Source: a phage
DNA length: 64,000 bases
Direction: 5' to 3' (one strand)
Sequence record: PZ386969.1
Shown: positions 28,798 through 64,000 of the stretch, piece by piece
How the letters are laid out: each line of letters begins with the position of its first letter
Position numbering within the stretch: the stretch's first letter is position 1
Translations under genes and position numbers: made by a program
Notes under the pieces: generated by a model
Seen by the model: only the letters and a program-made list of their open reading frames with translations
Databases searched by the model: none
What the model was told of the DNA's origin: nothing

Positions 28798-29352
28798 ATG
28801 AAATATTTTGAGAAGTTTCCTCTTGTTTGGCATCAATTACAAGATGTCCAAGAGAACGATCAGGTGCTGTTACAGAACTTAACGCGCCGTGTAATGATCT
28901 TACAGAAAATTAAGGACATCGAAGGGCTTCTCCTGCCGTATACGATCCAAGATGGGGAAACCCCAAGGTCTTTCGCAGAACGCGTTTACGGATCCTTCGA
29001 GTTGTTTTGGATACCTTGTCTGATAAACGGCATCATGGACATCAATAAGGACTGGCCGAAACCGGAACGCCGTATTGTTGAAGAACTGACTGCAGATTAC
29101 GGCATCGATGGTATGTGGGATACAGCCTATTATGTCGACCAGTTCAACAATGTGACCGACGCCCGTGCTATCAAATTTGCATATAACCTAGACCTAGATG
29201 AGCCGTCCATAATTGCTAACTATGGTCTGACGGCAGTTTCATACCATGATGATGCAATCAGTAAGAATGAAGCCAAACGGAACATCCAAGTACTCGACCC
29301 AGATTATGTGTCTTCGTTTGTCAATCAGCTGGAGCAGGAGTTGGCGAAATGA
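28798..29352 (+). CDS. Putative baseplate-associated protein
   Basis: Position in structural block only. Confidence 0.35.
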   Translation: MKYFEKFPLVWHQLQDVQENDQVLLQNLTRRVMILQKIKDIEGLLLPYTIQDGETPRSFAERVYGSFELFWIPCLINGIMDINKDWPKPERRIVEELTADYGIDGMWDTAYYVDQFNNVTDARAIKFAYNLDLDEPSIIANYGLTAVSYHDDAISKNEAKRNIQVLDPDYVSSFVNQLEQELAK

Positions 29353-30737
29353 TCGAAAACAGAGAGACCCAAGACGGTATTGTAACACCGTCAACAACAT
29401 TTGACCTGAAGTATATGGCGATACTCCCTCATACACCCCAGGGCGGATCACCAACGCCATATGACCTGACGGCGTTGTTTGAGGAGTTCAACGTCTTCCA
29501 GGATCTGGGTCTTGAAGGGAAGTCATCTCCATCACTTACAGCCAATGTCTTGATAAAAGAAGGGTGGGACATTCTTGACACAATGCCTATCTTGGGTGGT
29601 GAAGAAGTTGTGGTGTCATTCAAGAGTCCGGCGGCCTCGGAATACACCACTCTATCCCTGCGCGTAGCGCGTGTTGGGCGCGTAGCTGATGAGTCCAACA
29701 GCTCGTCCAAGAAAGCATTCTGGTTACACATGGTGACCACCGATGCCTACAAGGACAGCATGATCCGCTGCTCCCTCGGTCTTGAAGGTTCGTATTCTGA
29801 CATGGCGAAGGCAATCTTCAATCAGTTGGAGTCGCGCACCAAGTTCGAAGACATCGACCCGTCATATGGTATTCAAGAGCGGTTCGCCACCCCGCTCTGG
29901 CCTGTGCTGCGATCTATTGATTATATGGCAAGCCGTTCTTATGACGAATTGTTCATGCCATTCGTTTTCTATGAAGACTTCAATGGCTATCACTTCAAGA
30001 GCCTGACGACGTTGTTCAACCAGGGCAGCCAGTCATTGACGGCAGAAGAGAAGCAGGAACTGGCTCAGCAGAACAAGTTATTCCGTGATCCTCAGGACGC
30101 ACCGCTCATGCAGGATAACAACTTCAACTCTGAGCGCTTTATGCGCACGATCATCAAGGCAGAGAAGAAGCTGGCGCGTGACCAGTTCATGGCAAACTAC
30201 CGCGATGTCCTGGCGGTGAACGAGCGCGTCTACGACTTTGAGACCAAGACAGTCACCCCAACACAGCGCATCTATACTGAGTGGTTTGCAGAGACGGCTC
30301 ACCTTGATCCGTTCCCGATGTTCTCAGATGAATTCAATCGTCAGAACGTCCGTTACATTGAAGCCCAGCCGGATGGAGCGGAGCAGATTGATTATGCTCG
30401 TCGTGTTATCAACTTCAGTCTTGCCAGCACTGTGATGCGCGTGTTGCTCGTTGGTGATAACCGCCTGAACGTCGGTCAGGTGTTCTACGTCGAAGACCAG
30501 TCCAACCGTCCTAAGAAGAACGAAAACCTGGCAGAGTTAAGTAAGCTATCGACAGGCCACTATATCGTGACCAAAGTGCGTCACAAGATTTCCCGCCTAA
30601 CCAAAGATTATCAGTGTATCGCTGAGATTGCCAAGGACAGTTTGCTGGAGCAGGTGCTTCCACCTCAGACCAATCAGACAACTGCTTCCACCACTACTCC
30701 TCAGGCGATTGAGAAAGGCCAAGCACAGAAGGTTTAA
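29349..30737 (+). CDS. Putative baseplate hub/virion protein
   Basis: Position between baseplate genes and the tape-measure-like gene; no motif recognised. Confidence 0.4.
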   Translation: MIENRETQDGIVTPSTTFDLKYMAILPHTPQGGSPTPYDLTALFEEFNVFQDLGLEGKSSPSLTANVLIKEGWDILDTMPILGGEEVVVSFKSPAASEYTTLSLRVARVGRVADESNSSSKKAFWLHMVTTDAYKDSMIRCSLGLEGSYSDMAKAIFNQLESRTKFEDIDPSYGIQERFATPLWPVLRSIDYMASRSYDELFMPFVFYEDFNGYHFKSLTTLFNQGSQSLTAEEKQELAQQNKLFRDPQDAPLMQDNNFNSERFMRTIIKAEKKLARDQFMANYRDVLAVNERVYDFETKTVTPTQRIYTEWFAETAHLDPFPMFSDEFNRQNVRYIEAQPDGAEQIDYARRVINFSLASTVMRVLLVGDNRLNVGQVFYVEDQSNRPKKNENLAELSKLSTGHYIVTKVRHKISRLTKDYQCIAEIAKDSLLEQVLPPQTNQTTASTTTPQAIEKGQAQKV

Positions 30738-35539: not shown

Positions 35540-35601
35540 AGATTATTGGCGGGTACGGGATCTTGCTTGGCTGATAATGACCGCAAATGTTTCTGTATCC
35601 A

Positions 35602-36162
35602 TCATGAACCCTCCGCCCAGACAAAGCCGTATTTGTTCAGTAGATCCACGGTTTCACCACGAGCGCGAGCCACGATAGATTCTACTGATTCTTCCACCTC
35701 GAGTGGTGGGCAACCAGCCTTTTCGTACGTGTTAAGCAAGAGAGCAAGTTCTTTTACAAACTCTTCTTGTTCCTCTCCTCCAAAGAACCACATCCGCAGA
35801 TCGTCGCGTTCCCCGTGCTTGTTCAGGGAAGCCATATTCACGTACACGTAATCAGTTTTCTGAACAACGCCGTTTATCTCCGGCCATCGCAACCCAGCCA
35901 TCGCATAATTGAAGAATTCCGAAGGGGTGACTTCATCCGACAAATAATACAAACGGAAGTCACCGCTGGGGCCATGTTTGCAAGTTCTATCCAGCATTAT
36001 TTTGTGGATGTCAATACGGTCTCGCTTCAAGACTTCCCGTTTCTTCAGTCGACCTCTCAGCCAGGCACTGCCAATACACAAAAGAACGAAAGCAGTAGCA
36101 CCAGTGAGTATGTTGAAAGAATCAATAATGTTCATAAGATCCCCGAAGTGATAGAGGGGCAT
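35602..36162 (-). CDS. Membrane-anchored hypothetical protein
   Basis: Hydrophobic N-terminal helix; start uncertain (internal M at MNIIDSF). Confidence 0.45.
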   Translation of the reverse strand: MPLYHFGDLMNIIDSFNILTGATAFVLLCIGSAWLRGRLKKREVLKRDRIDIHKIMLDRTCKHGPSGDFRLYYLSDEVTPSEFFNYAMAGLRWPEINGVVQKTDYVYVNMASLNKHGERDDLRMWFFGGEEQEEFVKELALLLNTYEKAGCPPLEVEESVESIVARARGETVDLLNKYGFVWAEGS

Positions 36163-36176
36163 AAGCCCCTCTGATG

Positions 36177-36785
36177 TTATTTGCTCAGGCTGGCGAGGTA
36201 GTTGTCGGCTTCGATAGACGACGGGCTGTTGGCGGAGTAGCTCGAATCAGCGATTTCGGTTTCGCGCAGGATGGCATCGATATCGATGGTGGTCATACCA
36301 GCGGCATAATCGATATCTTCAGGGAGCACCAGACCCAGGTCGTTCGTCTCTTTCTGAACACGAACCAGCTCGAGATTGGACTTGACTTCGTCCAGTTTGT
36401 CACCCAGCTGGATGATCGCACCGTTCAGTTTGTCGCTGCTTGCTTCGATGTCCTTCACCTGAGCCAACAGGGCTTCACCGATACGGCGGCGATGCAGAAT
36501 AATCAGGGCGTCGGCGCGGGTTGGTGTGACACCACGAGCGATGGCGTCCTTCAGAACTTCTTCGCGCTTGGCGGCTTCACTTAGGTTCTGTTCTGCGGTC
36601 TTCTTCAGCTTGACGCCGTTGCGGACGTTGGTGACACGGGCTTCCTCCAGGCGACGGATTTCGTCAGACAGCTTGCGAGCAGCCAGGTTCAGGCGCTTTT
36701 CGGTGTCGGTCAGTTTATCCAGACCTGCGGTGACGTTAGCTTCAACAGTGGTGAAGATGCGTTTCAGTAAGTTTTTCAGTGACAT
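36177..36785 (-). CDS. Coiled-coil protein (PspA/IM30-like, tentative)
   Basis: Long helical heptad-like sequence; PspA family suggested by eye only. Confidence 0.35.
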   Translation of the reverse strand: MSLKNLLKRIFTTVEANVTAGLDKLTDTEKRLNLAARKLSDEIRRLEEARVTNVRNGVKLKKTAEQNLSEAAKREEVLKDAIARGVTPTRADALIILHRRRIGEALLAQVKDIEASSDKLNGAIIQLGDKLDEVKSNLELVRVQKETNDLGLVLPEDIDYAAGMTTIDIDAILRETEIADSSYSANSPSSIEADNYLASLSK

Positions 36786-48851: not shown

Positions 48852-48859
48852 TATAAATA
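48852..48859 (+). promoter_or_regulatory. T4 late-promoter-like TATAAATA
   Basis: Exact TATAAATA 35 nt upstream of the GTG start of a tail-tube-fold gene. Confidence 0.45.
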
Positions 48860-53687: not shown

Positions 53688-54494
53688 ATGAATTTACCAT
53701 CATTGCCCAGAACAGAAAAGACATATAAAAGCGACTTTTGGCCTACTGTGATCAAATATCGCGCCTTTACTGCGGGGCAACAAACTTTATTACTTCAGGT
53801 GTCAGATCCGCAAACGCCGATTGAAGAACGCGCGGCCATGATGGAGAGTCTCTTTAGCGAGTGTGTAAATGCAGGCGCACCTTTCAGTAAACTGCCAATC
53901 GGCGTTGTTGAGGAAGTGTTCATCCGCATGCGCATGATCTCCATCGGTGAATTGATGAAGATTCGTTATAAGTGCAATAATCAGATTGAAGAAACGATCG
54001 ATCTGGGAGATGGTCAAGAAAAGCACCAGATGGTTCCCTGTGAGCAGGAACTGACTCTACCTATCCCGTTGAACAACGTCAAATGCATTGCTCAGGACGG
54101 CTTCCGGGAGACGTTTGACCTGCCAGGTGGATATCACCTCAAGATGCGCCAACCTTCCTTCTCGGACGCTACGGCACTGTCTGATGCTGCAAGCGTTGAG
54201 ATGATGCTGGCCACCTTTATCGACTGTCTGTACGATGATGACGGTCAGGTGTGGAAGGTTGAGAATCCTGAAGAAATCGGAATCACTCCGGAAGAGGCTA
54301 CTGAGCGCCGCCGTGTGAAAGAAGCGTTTGTTGAGTGGGTGAAGGATAACATCGAATCAGATGTTATTGACAGCATTACGAAGAACTTCTTCCATAAAAT
54401 ACCGCGCATCCACTACAAGAGTTCGATCAAGTGTCCGAAATGTGGTAAGGAGCACAAAATCGAATTCAATAGTATTAATGAAATTTTCATTTAA
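53688..54494 (+). CDS. Hypothetical protein with C-terminal zinc ribbon (possibly baseplate-associated)
   Basis: ATG 53688 with GGAG RBS; TTATAATTA upstream; CPKCG motif near C-terminus. Confidence 0.5.
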   Translation: MNLPSLPRTEKTYKSDFWPTVIKYRAFTAGQQTLLLQVSDPQTPIEERAAMMESLFSECVNAGAPFSKLPIGVVEEVFIRMRMISIGELMKIRYKCNNQIEETIDLGDGQEKHQMVPCEQELTLPIPLNNVKCIAQDGFRETFDLPGGYHLKMRQPSFSDATALSDAASVEMMLATFIDCLYDDDGQVWKVENPEEIGITPEEATERRRVKEAFVEWVKDNIESDVIDSITKNFFHKIPRIHYKSSIKCPKCGKEHKIEFNSINEIFI

Positions 54495-54643
54495 TGTTTG
54501 AAACTGATTTATTATCCTACTTCGTGATGTGTGATGAATTGAAGTTACACGGCTATAGCATATTTGAAATCAACGAGTCGATGCCATGGCATCTTGACTT
54601 GTTAACCGAAGCCCTCAAGGTCAGGTTGTCTAAGAAACAGTAA
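54494..54643 (+). CDS. Small ORF (49 aa, not in track)
   Basis: ATG overlapping the previous stop (TAATG); followed directly by a strong terminator. Confidence 0.3.
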   Translation: MFETDLLSYFVMCDELKLHGYSIFEINESMPWHLDLLTEALKVRLSKKQ

Positions 54644-54666
54644 TCCCGCTTCGGCGGGATTTTTAT
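54644..54666 (+). terminator. Rho-independent terminator
   Basis: Stem TCCCGC/GCGGGA loop TTCG followed by TTTTTATT. Confidence 0.7.
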
Positions 54667-54964
54667 TGGCTTAACTGTAAAATCGGTTAACACGCGCTCT
54701 TTTTACCTGAAATTGCTATAATGGGCTTGTTCCCGAGTCATTTGTTGGTGTTTGTCTGTTTTGAATCAGATTGTCAGTAAAATACCATTTTTCAAGGAGT
54801 GTTCTGGGGTGTACAGTTATTGCCTCGCCCTTATGCCTCCATGGCATTGGAATGGTGCTGCCCGCATAGGGCGGTTTGATGAGCGAAGCGAATAGGATCG
54901 AATAAAACAAATAAAATGAACGGAAGCAGAGCTTCCTATAGTATATAAGGCAAAATCAGCTGCG

Positions 54965-54972
54965 CATAAATA
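54965..54972 (+). promoter_or_regulatory. Late-promoter-like CATAAATA upstream of the hub gene
   Basis: 7 of 8 match to TATAAATA, 35 nt upstream of ATG 55007. Confidence 0.3.
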
Positions 54973-55006
54973 CCTTCAAATCCTTGTTTGACAACCGGAA
55001 CTCAAT

Positions 55007-56617
55007 ATGTTAGACAATATGAGATGGTTTTACGGCACCGTTGAAGATGTCAACGATCCAGACCAAAACGGGCGCGTCGCCGTCCGCATCTATGGCGTAC
55101 ACACCGACGATCCCGTCCTCCTGCCTACAGACAAACTCCCGTGGGCGAAGGTACTGATGCCTGCTTCTAACGCCTCCTCTGCTGGTTTAGGTTGGTCTCC
55201 AACGGGTATCATTCCTGGTACTGAGGTTATGGGGTTCGCCCTTGACGAAGCATACCAGAATTTACGCATCACCTGGACTTGGACTGGTTCAAGTCCTACT
55301 GATGGCGCCGACACAAACCCACTGGCTCTCGGGCAGGTCGTTCAATCTGTAGAACGTCAGGCGTACAACGCTGTCACTGACGTTCCTGTGAAACAAGAAG
55401 ACGAACCACAACCAGATCCACAACCACCTGTTGGTGGGTATGATCCAGAGAAGTGGATGACAATCGCTCGTGGCGAATTAGGTATCAAGGAGTATGCCGG
55501 AAAGTTCAACAACAACCCGCGCATTATAGAATATCACAAGACAACCTCCCTTGGTGCTTCTGAAGATGAAGTGTCGTGGTGTGCGGCGTTCGTGGGTTGG
55601 GTTATGATACAGGCTGGATACACGTCTACACGCTCCGCTCTTGCCCGATCTTACCTTACATGGGGTACTGCACTGTCAGCACCACAATATGGCGCTATCG
55701 TAGTCTTCCGGCGTGGTAACAACCCCACATTTGGACACGTAGCGTTTGTGCAGAAGTTCGATGCAAACTATGTCTGGTGTATTGGTGGCAACCAATCCGA
55801 TTCAGTGAAGGTCAGTCGTTTCAGACGTTCTTCGGTCTTGGGATATCGTTGGCCTGGTCCTGCTAACACAGCCACAGCCGCGCCTGCGCAGCAGAATGGT
55901 AAATGGTCAGAACCTATCCCAGATCGTACCCCAAAGGAACAACCGACTCCGGCTCCTACTGGGCGAGTACAGGATATTGACAACACTGGAGAAACCATGG
56001 TTCCGGCTGCGGGTGGATCTAAATACCCGTACAATAACGTCATGGTGTCCCGAGCTGGGCATATTATGGAAGTGGACGACACCCCTGGTGGTGAACGTCT
56101 TCACTGGATGCATAAGTCTGGGTCTTACAAGCAAATGTTGCCGGATGGTGATGTGGTCAACAAGTCCGTCAAAGACCACTATGACCTGACGATGTTCAAC
56201 AAGCGTTATTATGTCGGCGGGGACCACAACCTGACGGTCAAAGGAACTGAAGTTCAGCGCAAGACAGGTGAGGTCTATCATTTGCATTCCAACAATTACT
56301 CCAACGTGGTTGCGGGCACAGCGCTGATGAAATTCAGTGACCTAGCGGAAATGCAAGCGCAGAATATTCTGCGCATTATCTGCGAGACTCTGGAGGTCGG
56401 TGGGACATTGAAGGTTCCTAAGATTCTAACGACTGAGATAATCGCTGACAAACTGACTGTCGCTCAGACGATCAATGGTAACATCATATATGCCGAAGGT
56501 GCTGGTCGCGCTTCTTCTCTGTCAGGTGCAACCCCTGCATCCCCTACGGGTCCGGGTGAGATTGACATCAAGGCAGAATTAAAAGACAATGGTGGTAATT
56601 TCGGCACCAAAGAGTAA
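55007..56617 (+). CDS. Baseplate hub / cell-puncturing protein (T4 gp5-like) with CHAP/NlpC-P60-like domain
   Basis: gp5-type N-terminal OB region; central Cys...His peptidase-like pair (SWCAAFVGW ... FGHVAFV); beta-helix-like C-terminus. Confidence 0.7.
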   Translation: MLDNMRWFYGTVEDVNDPDQNGRVAVRIYGVHTDDPVLLPTDKLPWAKVLMPASNASSAGLGWSPTGIIPGTEVMGFALDEAYQNLRITWTWTGSSPTDGADTNPLALGQVVQSVERQAYNAVTDVPVKQEDEPQPDPQPPVGGYDPEKWMTIARGELGIKEYAGKFNNNPRIIEYHKTTSLGASEDEVSWCAAFVGWVMIQAGYTSTRSALARSYLTWGTALSAPQYGAIVVFRRGNNPTFGHVAFVQKFDANYVWCIGGNQSDSVKVSRFRRSSVLGYRWPGPANTATAAPAQQNGKWSEPIPDRTPKEQPTPAPTGRVQDIDNTGETMVPAAGGSKYPYNNVMVSRAGHIMEVDDTPGGERLHWMHKSGSYKQMLPDGDVVNKSVKDHYDLTMFNKRYYVGGDHNLTVKGTEVQRKTGEVYHLHSNNYSNVVAGTALMKFSDLAEMQAQNILRIICETLEVGGTLKVPKILTTEIIADKLTVAQTINGNIIYAEGAGRASSLSGATPASPTGPGEIDIKAELKDNGGNFGTKE

Positions 56618-56690: not shown

Positions 56691-57071
56691 ATGAAAGAGT
56701 ATAAAGATGTCGATCTGAAGTTCGGCATGCATCCGGTGACCAAAGATGTCACCATGAAATCAGGTGTGTATGCTGTCTTACAATCCGTGCGGAATATCGT
56801 CATGTCTTCAGTCGGGGACTGGCCCACTTATCCTGGGATCGGCGCGGGACTTTATGGGCTGCTGGGTGAAAACACGACACCGACTATCCAGGTAGATGTG
56901 AAGAACAAAGTAGAGGACGCCATCGCCCTGTATGAACCCAGAGCAGAGGTAGAAGAAGTCACGGTGAGTCTGTCAGAGGATTACCACTCTCTGGGCGTGA
57001 CCATCACATTCTATGTGGTCAACAATCCAGATCCAATAACAGACACCGTGTGGTTGAAAAGGACGAATTAG
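56691..57071 (+). CDS. Baseplate wedge protein (T4 gp25-like)
   Basis: 126 aa; gp25/GPW-type sequence including DWPTYPGIG. Confidence 0.7.
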   Translation: MKEYKDVDLKFGMHPVTKDVTMKSGVYAVLQSVRNIVMSSVGDWPTYPGIGAGLYGLLGENTTPTIQVDVKNKVEDAIALYEPRAEVEEVTVSLSEDYHSLGVTITFYVVNNPDPITDTVWLKRTN

Positions 57072-57896: not shown

Positions 57897-58157
57897 TTAT
57901 TTCACATATTCAAGGGCTTTGGTCAGACCAAAGCGAAGACGTTCACGAGCAACCTTCAATTCTTCTCGGTCTTTACCTTGACCGTTGTTGTCGTGATTCA
58001 TAATGATTTCGTGGTTGACCACGGCGCGGAGGGTTCTGAGTTCACCTATCCAATATGCCTTGTTAGCAGCACAGCCGCGTTTGGCTGTCATGGCGTGGTA
58101 TTTCATTGAGGTGTCGTAGACTTCAGAGTCGGTCATGATATAGTTCCTGCTGTTCAA
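57897..58157 (-). CDS. Hypothetical protein
   Basis: ORF only. Confidence 0.4.
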   Translation of the reverse strand: MNSRNYIMTDSEVYDTSMKYHAMTAKRGCAANKAYWIGELRTLRAVVNHEIIMNHDNNGQGKDREELKVARERLRFGLTKALEYVK

Positions 58158-59581: not shown

Positions 59582-59875
59582 TTATGCCTTGCCTTCGTGG
59601 AGTTTGATCTGTTCGGTGGTAATGTAATTCTTGATGTTAACAACAAAATCCCGGCGTTTGTCTGCAGGTAATTTGCTGAGGTCTAGAAGGATGTGAGTAC
59701 GGTTCACAGTATCCATTGGATCCGTGTAGTTCAACGGGATAGCCGTGACTTCGCCGCCGTTGTGCCAAGCAGTGGCCACCTTCACGTTGCGCAGAACATT
59801 CTCCGCTTCCATTTTGCTGTTGTGTTCGAGCAAGATACCTGGTTGGCCAGGGACTAACAATAACGTTTGGAACAT
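59582..59875 (-). CDS. Hypothetical protein between nrdA and nrdB
   Basis: ORF filling the nrdA-nrdB gap. Confidence 0.4.
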   Translation of the reverse strand: MFQTLLLVPGQPGILLEHNSKMEAENVLRNVKVATAWHNGGEVTAIPLNYTDPMDTVNRTHILLDLSKLPADKRRDFVVNIKNYITTEQIKLHEGKA

Positions 59876-59944
59876 ATAGAACTCCTGATGAATAGGGGTG
59901 ATCTCTCACCCCTGATGATATAACGGTAGTAGGTTTAGACCAAT

Positions 59945-63254: not shown

Positions 63255-64000
63255 TTAACTGAAACTCTTGTATGCTGCTGCGAGCTTCTTGTCGTACTGG
63301 TTCTTGGCATACGCCGGACCATTATAGCGCCGTGCAAATTCAGACCAGTTCTTGTCCTTCAGAGCCTGCCAGAGCTTGGCGTCAGCCTTGATGAACTTCA
63401 CGAATGCCATCAAATGAGCACGTTCTCCTGTCAGGAAGTCGTTGAACATCTCCTTGGCGTTGGCATATCCACAGACCTGGCAGTTGAATCCCATGATCTG
63501 GAAGAGACCGTAAGAGGCACTCTCGTACGCACAATCCTCGTCGATGTTGATCGCTGCATGAAGTCGATCCAACTCCGCGTCACCACCCGTGTACCCGCCT
63601 GCGGAAGGACTGACCAACGTCGGGTACATATGTCCCATGGCATTCGCCCGAGCCTGTCCGAACTTCGCCGTCAGCTTCTTATACATGATGTGGCGCTCAA
63701 ATAATGTCTTGATCTTACCTGACTTGGTGAAGCCCGTACCGCGTGACTCAACCTGATTCACCGCCTTGGCAGAGGCGAGGTCAACACCCAGATCGTTAGC
63801 AGCATCAATCAGGTCTGATTCAGTTAGATGATCCTGATGGGCGTCTCCGGCGTTGCGAATAGCATAGGAGGTCTTTGGACCTACGATACCATCAATGACA
63901 AGCCCCGCACCCGCCTGAACAGTCTTGACAGCGTTCTCTGTTGCCTTGCCAAAGATACCATCAGCGACGAGGGTGAAGCCGATTTTGTTGAGGCTATTCT
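63255..64000 (-). CDS. Endolysin, partial (peptidoglycan-binding domain plus muramidase-like domain), N-terminus beyond window
   Basis: Frame stays open upstream of the track start to the window edge; hand translation of 63762-64000 gives a PG_binding_1-like repeat (ADGIFGKATENAVKTVQAGAGLVIDGIVGPKT); C-terminal catalytic domain. Confidence 0.6.
   Translation of the reverse strand, partial: NSLNKIGFTLVADGIFGKATENAVKTVQAGAGLVIDGIVGPKTSYAIRNAGDAHQDHLTESDLIDAANDLGVDLASAKAVNQVESRGTGFTKSGKIKTLFERHIMYKKLTAKFGQARANAMGHMYPTLVSPSAGGYTGGDAELDRLHAAINIDEDCAYESASYGLFQIMGFNCQVCGYANAKEMFNDFLTGERAHLMAFVKFIKADAKLWQALKDKNWSEFARRYNGPAYAKNQYDKKLAAAYKSFS

Follow-up and report, generated by a model that had tools for sequence, protein, structure and literature searches.

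The gp5-like spike gene and its scaffold

The DNA analysed here (hereafter the window, i.e., the whole stretch of 64,000 nucleotides (nt) of a phage genome held in sequence record PZ386969.1) belongs to an Agtrevirus-like phage of the Ackermannviridae, and this work concerns one of its genes, the gp5-like baseplate central spike (or hub) gene. This gene is an ATG-start open reading frame (ORF) located at 55007-56617 on the + strand (the coordinates take in the stop codon), and its product, a protein of 536 amino acids (aa), is the Ackermannviridae (ViI-like) tail-tip spike, orthologous to gp5 of T4. At the DNA level, the gene was 98–99% identical to its annotated gp5 counterparts in Agtrevirus-like phages (the E. 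coli phages AV101, A221, PC3/PH4, LHE287 and RPN242) and ~91% identical to that of Shigella phage Ag3. The window as a whole is collinear with AV101 (classified in the Ackermannviridae, subfamily Aglimvirinae) at 93–98% identity, with the exception of a few insertions and deletions.

The Pfam scan of the window protein identified Gp5_OB and CHAP only, while the same scan of a T4-type gp5, used as a control, returned Gp5_OB, Phage_lysozyme, Gp5_C repeats and Gp5_trimer_C; Gp5_C and Gp5_trimer_C were thus not detected by Pfam in the window protein. The N-terminal OB domain (aa 1–95; 55007..55291, + strand), presumed to be the hub docking surface, matched PF06714 with 48.1 bits against a gathering cut-off of 25 (E 1.9e-12) and shared 41% identity with aa 6–102 of the T4-type gp5. 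In the full-length AlphaFold2 (AF2) model, this domain showed the strand pattern of a beta-barrel, with predicted local distance difference test (pLDDT) values of 76–86. The gp5-type N-terminus reported by a first-pass annotation, made from the letters of the sequence, is therefore borne out. Matches to T4 gp5 structures of the PDB were confined to aa 1–93 and 337–432 (E 3e-30), which means that the middle of the protein is a different module.

This middle module is held between two linkers. Linker 1 (aa 96–149; 55292..55453, + strand), with a proline-rich EDEPQPDPQPP segment, is poorly conserved among orthologues and lies largely in a stretch (aa 94–139) modelled by AF2 with pLDDT below 50. 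Linker 2 (aa 284–336; 55856..56014, + strand), also modelled with pLDDT below 50, is rich in Pro, Ala and Thr and carries, in the orthologue alignment, an invariant W300-x-E-P-I-P-x-R-x-P motif. Its place in the protein is that of the linker in which T4 gp5 undergoes maturation cleavage.

Downstream of linker 2, aa 337–440 (56015..56326, + strand) correspond by homology to the opening part of the beta-helix that ends T4 gp5. This region was found 36% identical to aa 386–480 of the T4-type gp5 by BLASTP, and phmmer aligned its aa 337–432 with residues 385–477 of T4 gp5 from the PDB (domain E ~1e-13). Five 8-residue units can be recognised at aa 403–442, four of which have Gly at the third position. 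The remaining C-terminal module (aa 441–536; 56327..56614, + strand) ends in an invariant DNGGNF, was modelled with low confidence in the AF2 monomer and had no match in Pfam or the PDB. An exhaustive search of representative proteins with the C-terminal 96 residues gave only 10 matches, of which 4 were judged spurious (repetitive or low-complexity proteins) and 2 were marginal (E ~3-6e-4); the latter, in the Gp5_OB proteins P0247 and P0248, were the only ones retained outside the family. The beta-helix-like C-terminus of the first-pass annotation is thus borne out only in part, by the homology to T4 gp5 up to residue 432 and by the glycine-bearing units, while aa 441–536 have no counterpart in Pfam or the PDB. 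Note that orthologues P0134-P0140, P0142 and P0143 (Serratia, Erwinia and metagenomic) carry a further C-terminal extension of ~70–80 aa past DNGGNF (columns ~546–629 of the orthologue alignment), which ends in a conserved V-I-L-R-x-x-G-x-x-P...S-N-G-x-x-W-E and is absent from the window protein.

The central peptidase domain

The central module (aa 150–282; 55454..55852, + strand) is assigned by profile matches to the TIGR02594 / CHAP (NlpC/P60-superfamily) cysteine peptidases. The TIGR02594 model (NCBIfam) matched aa 150–282 with 129.3 bits against a cut-off of 70.55 (E 1.1e-37), and CHAP PF05257 scored 43.1 bits against a cut-off of 26 (E 6e-11). The domain search thus agrees with the CHAP/NlpC-P60 module that had been proposed in place of the lysozyme. 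In the same way, the Cys/His pair that had been noticed in the context SWCAAF...FGHVAFV is present: SWCAAF starts at aa 190 (Cys192), FGHVAFV at aa 242 (His244) and a GGNQSD motif at aa 260, and both the Cys and the His are conserved catalytic positions that align with those of CwlO and CD630_03720.

The conservation of these positions was considered on two alignments of different depths. The domain alignment brought together the window domain and 74 diverse homologues (n=75), mostly stand-alone proteins of ~140–170 aa, in which the residues D42, W46, A68, H99, V100 and G115-G116-N117-Q118 were invariant and Cys47 was found in 74 of 75 sequences (domain numbering, to which 145 is added to obtain the full-length numbering). 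The orthologue alignment comprised 23 cluster representatives from the Ackermannviridae, down to 59% identity, and C192, H244, N262 and Q263 were invariant in all of them. Cys192 (codon at 55580..55582, + strand) is the predicted nucleophile, and its position also aligns with the catalytic Cys of CwlO. His244 (55736..55738, + strand), invariant in all alignments and aligned with the catalytic His of CwlO and 4hpe, is the predicted general base. The Asn262-Gln263 codons of the GGNQ motif (55790..55795, + strand), 18 residues past His244 and kept in 75/75 homologues, would provide the third, polar member of the triad, for which Asn262 is our predicted candidate. In addition, the peptidase domain is the best-conserved segment of the spike, with 84% mean identity and 46% invariant columns among the 23 orthologues, against 63–76% identity and 21–30% invariant columns for the other segments.

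Modelling of the domain with AF2 on the 75-sequence alignment yielded a mean pLDDT of 95.4 and a predicted template modelling (pTM) score of 0.91. In this model, Cys47 stands at the N-terminus of a helix (47–57) and His99 at the start of a strand (98–106), which is, as modelled, the arrangement of a papain fold. Foldseek agreed with the papain fold and returned no lysozyme or other glycosidase fold among the matches listed, and the Cys and His appear spatially paired when the model is superposed on solved enzymes. These solved enzymes share merely 13–23% identity with the peptidase domain, and the PDB profile search was not significant (E 0.3–0.6), yet its alignments placed Cys47 and His99 on the active-site Cys/His pair of both CwlO and CD630_03720.

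No trace of the T4 lysozyme was found in the same region. Indeed, PF00959 had no match in the window protein while the T4-type control gave one, T4 gp5 residues ~170–350 gave no alignment with the window protein, and hhalign of the domain profile against the whole T4-type gp5 returned a probability of 0.4%. Moreover, the phage encodes a separate lysis enzyme, an N-acetylmuramidase cut by the window end (63255..64000, - strand), whose part inside the window matched PF11860 Muramidase with E 5.9e-56, and whose AV101 homologue is collinear and 795 nt long. Unlike that of T4, the spike enzyme is thus no paralogue of the endolysin, which in this phage belongs to PF11860. Note that the muramidase gene adjoins phoH and that the AV101 homologue is labelled merely 'putative peptidoglycan binding protein'.

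Proposed role of the spike peptidase

Altogether, we propose that the spike keeps the OB domain and the start of a trimeric beta-helix, and that its lysozyme has been replaced by a TIGR02594 cysteine peptidase with a predicted Cys192-His244-Asn262 triad, which opens the peptidoglycan at entry; we assign to this reading a probability of roughly 0.82. By analogy with T4, the spike would trimerise through its C-terminal part and be docked on the hub by the OB domain, so that three copies of the peptidase would be carried on it. Sheath contraction would then drive the spike through the outer membrane, the peptidase domains would hydrolyse amide bonds of the stem peptides and open the peptidoglycan locally, and the tail tube would reach the inner membrane through the opened wall. 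The presence of the spike in virions has been reported for several orthologues by mass spectrometry, namely ORF61 of LIMEstone1 (PMC3296691), the protein of the Vi01-like phage Sajous1 (PMC10892097) and that of ViI, as cited in PMC3184105.

The scissile bond would most likely be gamma-D-Glu-meso-diaminopimelic acid (meso-DAP), which is the best guess because the nearest structural relatives are gamma-D-Glu-meso-DAP endopeptidases. The first-pass annotation is supported as regards the peptidase module, but its suggestion that the device would cut peptide cross-links is over-specific for the evidence, since the superfamily spans gamma-D-Glu-meso-DAP endopeptidases, cross-link endopeptidases and N-acetylmuramic acid (MurNAc)-L-Ala amidases. 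The alternative that survives best, although we consider it unlikely, is in this respect that the central domain acts as an N-acetylmuramoyl-L-alanine amidase stripping whole stem peptides off the glycan, a function found within the same superfamily; the protein would still be a virion-associated spike hydrolase, acting on another bond.

A second alternative, to which we give very little credence, is that the peptidase targets something other than bulk peptidoglycan (the Braun lipoprotein-meso-DAP link, a host protein of the periplasm or outer membrane, or, in self-processing, the spike itself) or that the domain serves only as a structural collar. The invariant W-x-E-P-I-P-x-R-x-P of linker 2 could be taken in favour of a non-peptidoglycan target, and self-processing would recall the general knowledge that T4 gp5 is cleaved in the equivalent linker. 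However, a purely structural collar fails to explain the invariance of Cys, His and Asn across orthologues and homologues, a protein substrate has nothing in its support, and homologous domains occur fused to PG_binding_1, SH3 and GH108, i.e., wall-binding or wall-degrading modules, fusions that point to peptidoglycan as the substrate. Finally, the idea of a highly diverged lysozyme or glycosidase in the central region, as implied by the common database label 'tail lysozyme', is refuted at the fold level and was ruled out by the Pfam scan with its T4 control, by hhalign and by the fold search, which leaves it a probability close to nil. PADLOC gave no similarity to defence systems.

Several points weigh against the proposal that the spike is a trimeric, peptidase-bearing device that opens peptidoglycan. 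Bond specificity is not readable from the fold, the CHAP/NlpC/P60 enzymes including both amidases and cross-link endopeptidases (Tae2/3, MepS). The Cys192-His244 pairing was deduced from superposition of the predicted model on solved enzymes, and the trimeric state, the association with a gp27-like hub and the maturation cleavage are extrapolated from T4. The full-length AF2 monomer was confident for the OB and peptidase domains, while the linkers and the C-terminus had pLDDT below 50 and are uninformative there; note that a monomer model is unable to reveal a trimeric beta-helix. In addition, the candidate gp27-like protein (ORF 29349-30737, 462 aa) matched no Pfam family and, by sequence, neither solved gp27 nor any other PDB entry, so that the gp5-gp27 contact is merely assumed. 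Moreover, our literature search, thin on subscription journals, found no biochemical, genetic or structural study of the spike or its orthologues. Neither for the TIGR02594 family nor for gp5 of the Ackermannviridae did the literature searched, with subscription journals mostly outside it, yield a published activity assay, and it gave no cryo-electron microscopy structure of an Ackermannviridae baseplate, which does not prove that such work is absent.

The replacement of the lysozyme by a peptidase in ViI-like phages is correct but has been known since 2011. Under the heading 'Baseplate Lysozyme', Kutter et al. (2011, Virol J 8:430; PMC3184105) described the CBA120 gp5 homologue, a protein of 537 aa without the usual lysozyme, with a putative CHAP domain of the TIGR02594 family (NLPC_P60 superfamily) at aa 150–282 and T4 gp5-like flanks at aa 3–109 and 334–437. 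The gp5 of CBA120 (a Kuttervirus of E. coli O157) thus has the same family, architecture and residue ranges as the window protein, and the two phages differ by genus, the feature itself being no different; Kuttervirus orthologues are ~84% identical to the window protein. Some database entries also reflect this architecture: the RefSeq note of phage PhiSH19 reads 'Gp5 OB family & CHAP domain associated with peptidoglycan hydrolysis', the spike is a 'cell wall-associated hydrolase' in the records of A221 and Bue1, and one copy is entered at NCBI as 'TIGR02594 family protein'. What we add to the 2011 account is a model of the structure, conservation resolved to single residues and a survey of related spikes, and the significance as a discovery is small. 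In practice, 'tail lysozyme' is a misnomer for ~280 Ackermannviridae records.

Compared with known systems, T4 gp5 (PDB 1K28, 1PDL and 5IV5) has in common with the window protein the OB domain (41% identity), sequence homology over the first part of the beta-helix (36% identity) and, presumably, a location in the middle of the baseplate and a wall-crossing role. In contrast, T4 gp5 carries a GH24 lysozyme (PF00959) related to the T4 endolysin, whereas the cysteine peptidase of the window protein is unrelated to either the T4 lysozyme or the phage's own muramidase. The diffocin hub-hydrolase CD1368 (8v3w_H) and the hub proteins of Staphylococcus phage 812 (9euf and 9eum) act on Gram-positive walls and are built on different hub scaffolds, without sequence homology to the gp5 OB domain and beta-helix, and their peptidase domains are 6–18% identical to the window domain. 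At 40–58% identity, stand-alone TIGR02594 proteins share the catalytic domain and keep its invariant D, W, C, H and GGNQ positions, but they are free or fused to PG_binding_1, SH3 or GH108 and not embedded in a tail spike. The P5 protein of Pseudomonas phage phi6 is a functional analogue, a virion-borne peptidase for crossing a Gram-negative wall, for which no homology is claimed; it comes from an enveloped dsRNA virus and is monomeric, membrane-associated and outside any contractile tail. According to a 2017 review, phi6 P5 is the only virion lysin of a phage infecting Gram-negative bacteria with demonstrated endopeptidase activity (PMC5380687), and there appears to be no biochemically characterised virion-borne endopeptidase of a tailed Gram-negative phage. 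Since phi6 P5 was the sole entry in that review, an enzymatic study of the spike domain would fill a real but modest gap, and the domain could yield an enzyme active on Gram-negative peptidoglycan.

Distribution and genomic neighbourhood of the spike gene

Full-length orthologues were found in ~280 phage records, all of enterobacterial Ackermannviridae, with Salmonella, Klebsiella, Escherichia, Dickeya, Serratia, Shigella, Erwinia and Enterobacter as hosts. Shorter proteins combining the OB and CHAP domains without the helix occur in Rhizobium phage RHph_Y68 (L004 3001-3837) and in metagenomic contigs. Other metagenomic Gp5_OB proteins bear different modules, namely a VgrG3-like C-terminal domain (P0148), a canonical NLPC_P60 domain (P0146) or an Amidase_2 plus an S74 chaperone (P0248), and three of them (P0149, P0150 and P0247) bear no enzyme. 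This variety, established by a survey of domain architectures alone, suggests that the enzymatic module of the Gp5_OB spike scaffold may be interchangeable, with cassettes swapped on a single scaffold. A broader view, which we hold to be improbable, is that the spike peptidase departs from a generic DL-endopeptidase, in the bond that it cuts or in its role, in a way adapted to the enterobacterial envelope (the lipoprotein-to-meso-DAP link, 3-3 cross-links, or release at the W-x-E-P-I-P-x-R-x-P linker) or that gp5-like spikes in general are a scaffold on which wall-degrading cassettes (lysozyme, a VgrG3-like domain, NlpC/P60, TIGR02594/CHAP, Amidase_2 or none in this survey) are swapped time and again; if the latter were true, host range could depend in part on which cassette is carried.

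The peptidase module itself is found in several contexts. The contigs that encode its nearest stand-alone relatives (55–58% identity) are phage-like and consist of short genes without annotation, a putative TIGR02594 endolysin adjoins the holin in Pseudomonas phage ZC01 (PMC5418858), and TIGR02594 proteins located next to VgrG in Stenotrophomonas are predicted peptidoglycan-degrading effectors of the type VI secretion system (PMC13055248). The label 'tail lysozyme' is also borne by Vibrio phage ICP1 gp207 (L005 2752-3468; PG_binding_1 + CHAP, 238 aa) and E. coli phage D6 orf16 (L006 2983-3468; CHAP alone, 161 aa), both without the gp5 OB domain or helix. Both of these stand-alone TIGR02594 proteins look like free wall hydrolases that seem to have inherited their label from the central domain of Ackermannviridae gp5.

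In the window, the gp5 gene is flanked by baseplate genes. Upstream lie the gene of a gp26-like baseplate hub subunit (53688..54494, + strand; PF12322 T4_baseplate with E 1.2e-46, PHROG 150 and the AV101 annotation) and a 49-aa ORF (54494..54643, + strand) that matched PHROG 9633 with E 2.9e-39 and, weakly, the gp51-like 'baseplate hub assembly catalyst' of PHROG 634 (E 4.4e-4). Downstream lies the gene of a gp25-like baseplate wedge subunit (56691..57071, + strand; PF04965 GPW_gp25 with E 3.1e-8 and the AV101 annotation). A motif resembling the T4-type late promoter, CATAAATA, is located 42 nt 5' of the gp5 ATG (54965..54972, + strand) and is kept upstream of gp5 in six Ackermannviridae genera, and TATAAATA (48852-48859, + strand) lies exactly 42 nt 5' of the gp54-like gene, i.e., with the same spacing. 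From their sequence and position, both look like T4-type late promoters and are candidates for this function, and CATAAATA suggests that the gp5 gene would be expressed late, which would fit with a structural gene. Note that the late promoter of this phage family had not yet been identified at the time of the 2011 CBA120 paper (PMC3184105).

Most of the related records listed leave the 363-nt gap between the gp51-like ORF and gp5 (54644-55006, + strand) without annotation, yet it is conserved across Ackermannviridae genera (in Kuttervirus, with 72–74% nt identity over 286 nt). This intergenic region displays a terminator hairpin (54642-54661, + strand), a promoter-like TTGCTATAAT (54713-54722, + strand), a core of ~25 nt, TTATGCCTCCATGGCATTGGAATGG (54831-54855, + strand), that is near-invariant in four genera and unique in the window, and two hairpins (54858-54874 and 54922-54936, + strand) whose pairing is kept via compensatory changes, as exemplified by GGAAGC/GCTTCC, GGATGC/GCATCC and GGCGGC/GCCGCC. 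No ORF of the region is conserved across genera, and Rfam gave nothing above threshold for it, the sub-threshold matches being centred on the terminator hairpin. We regard the region as a candidate small RNA or regulatory leader.

Elsewhere in the window, a segment of 1.2 kb (35580-36785, - strand) is extra relative to AV101 and contains two ORFs, one without any family (35602-36162, - strand) and one PspA/IM30-like (36177-36785, - strand; E 4.8e-11). The SegD-like homing-endonuclease gene of AV101 is missing from the window, as is the 446-nt ORF that sits between two topoisomerase genes in AV101 (window sites ~1800 and 19559 being differences relative to AV101). Small extra segments relative to AV101 are also present at window positions 57904-58132 and 59583-59883.

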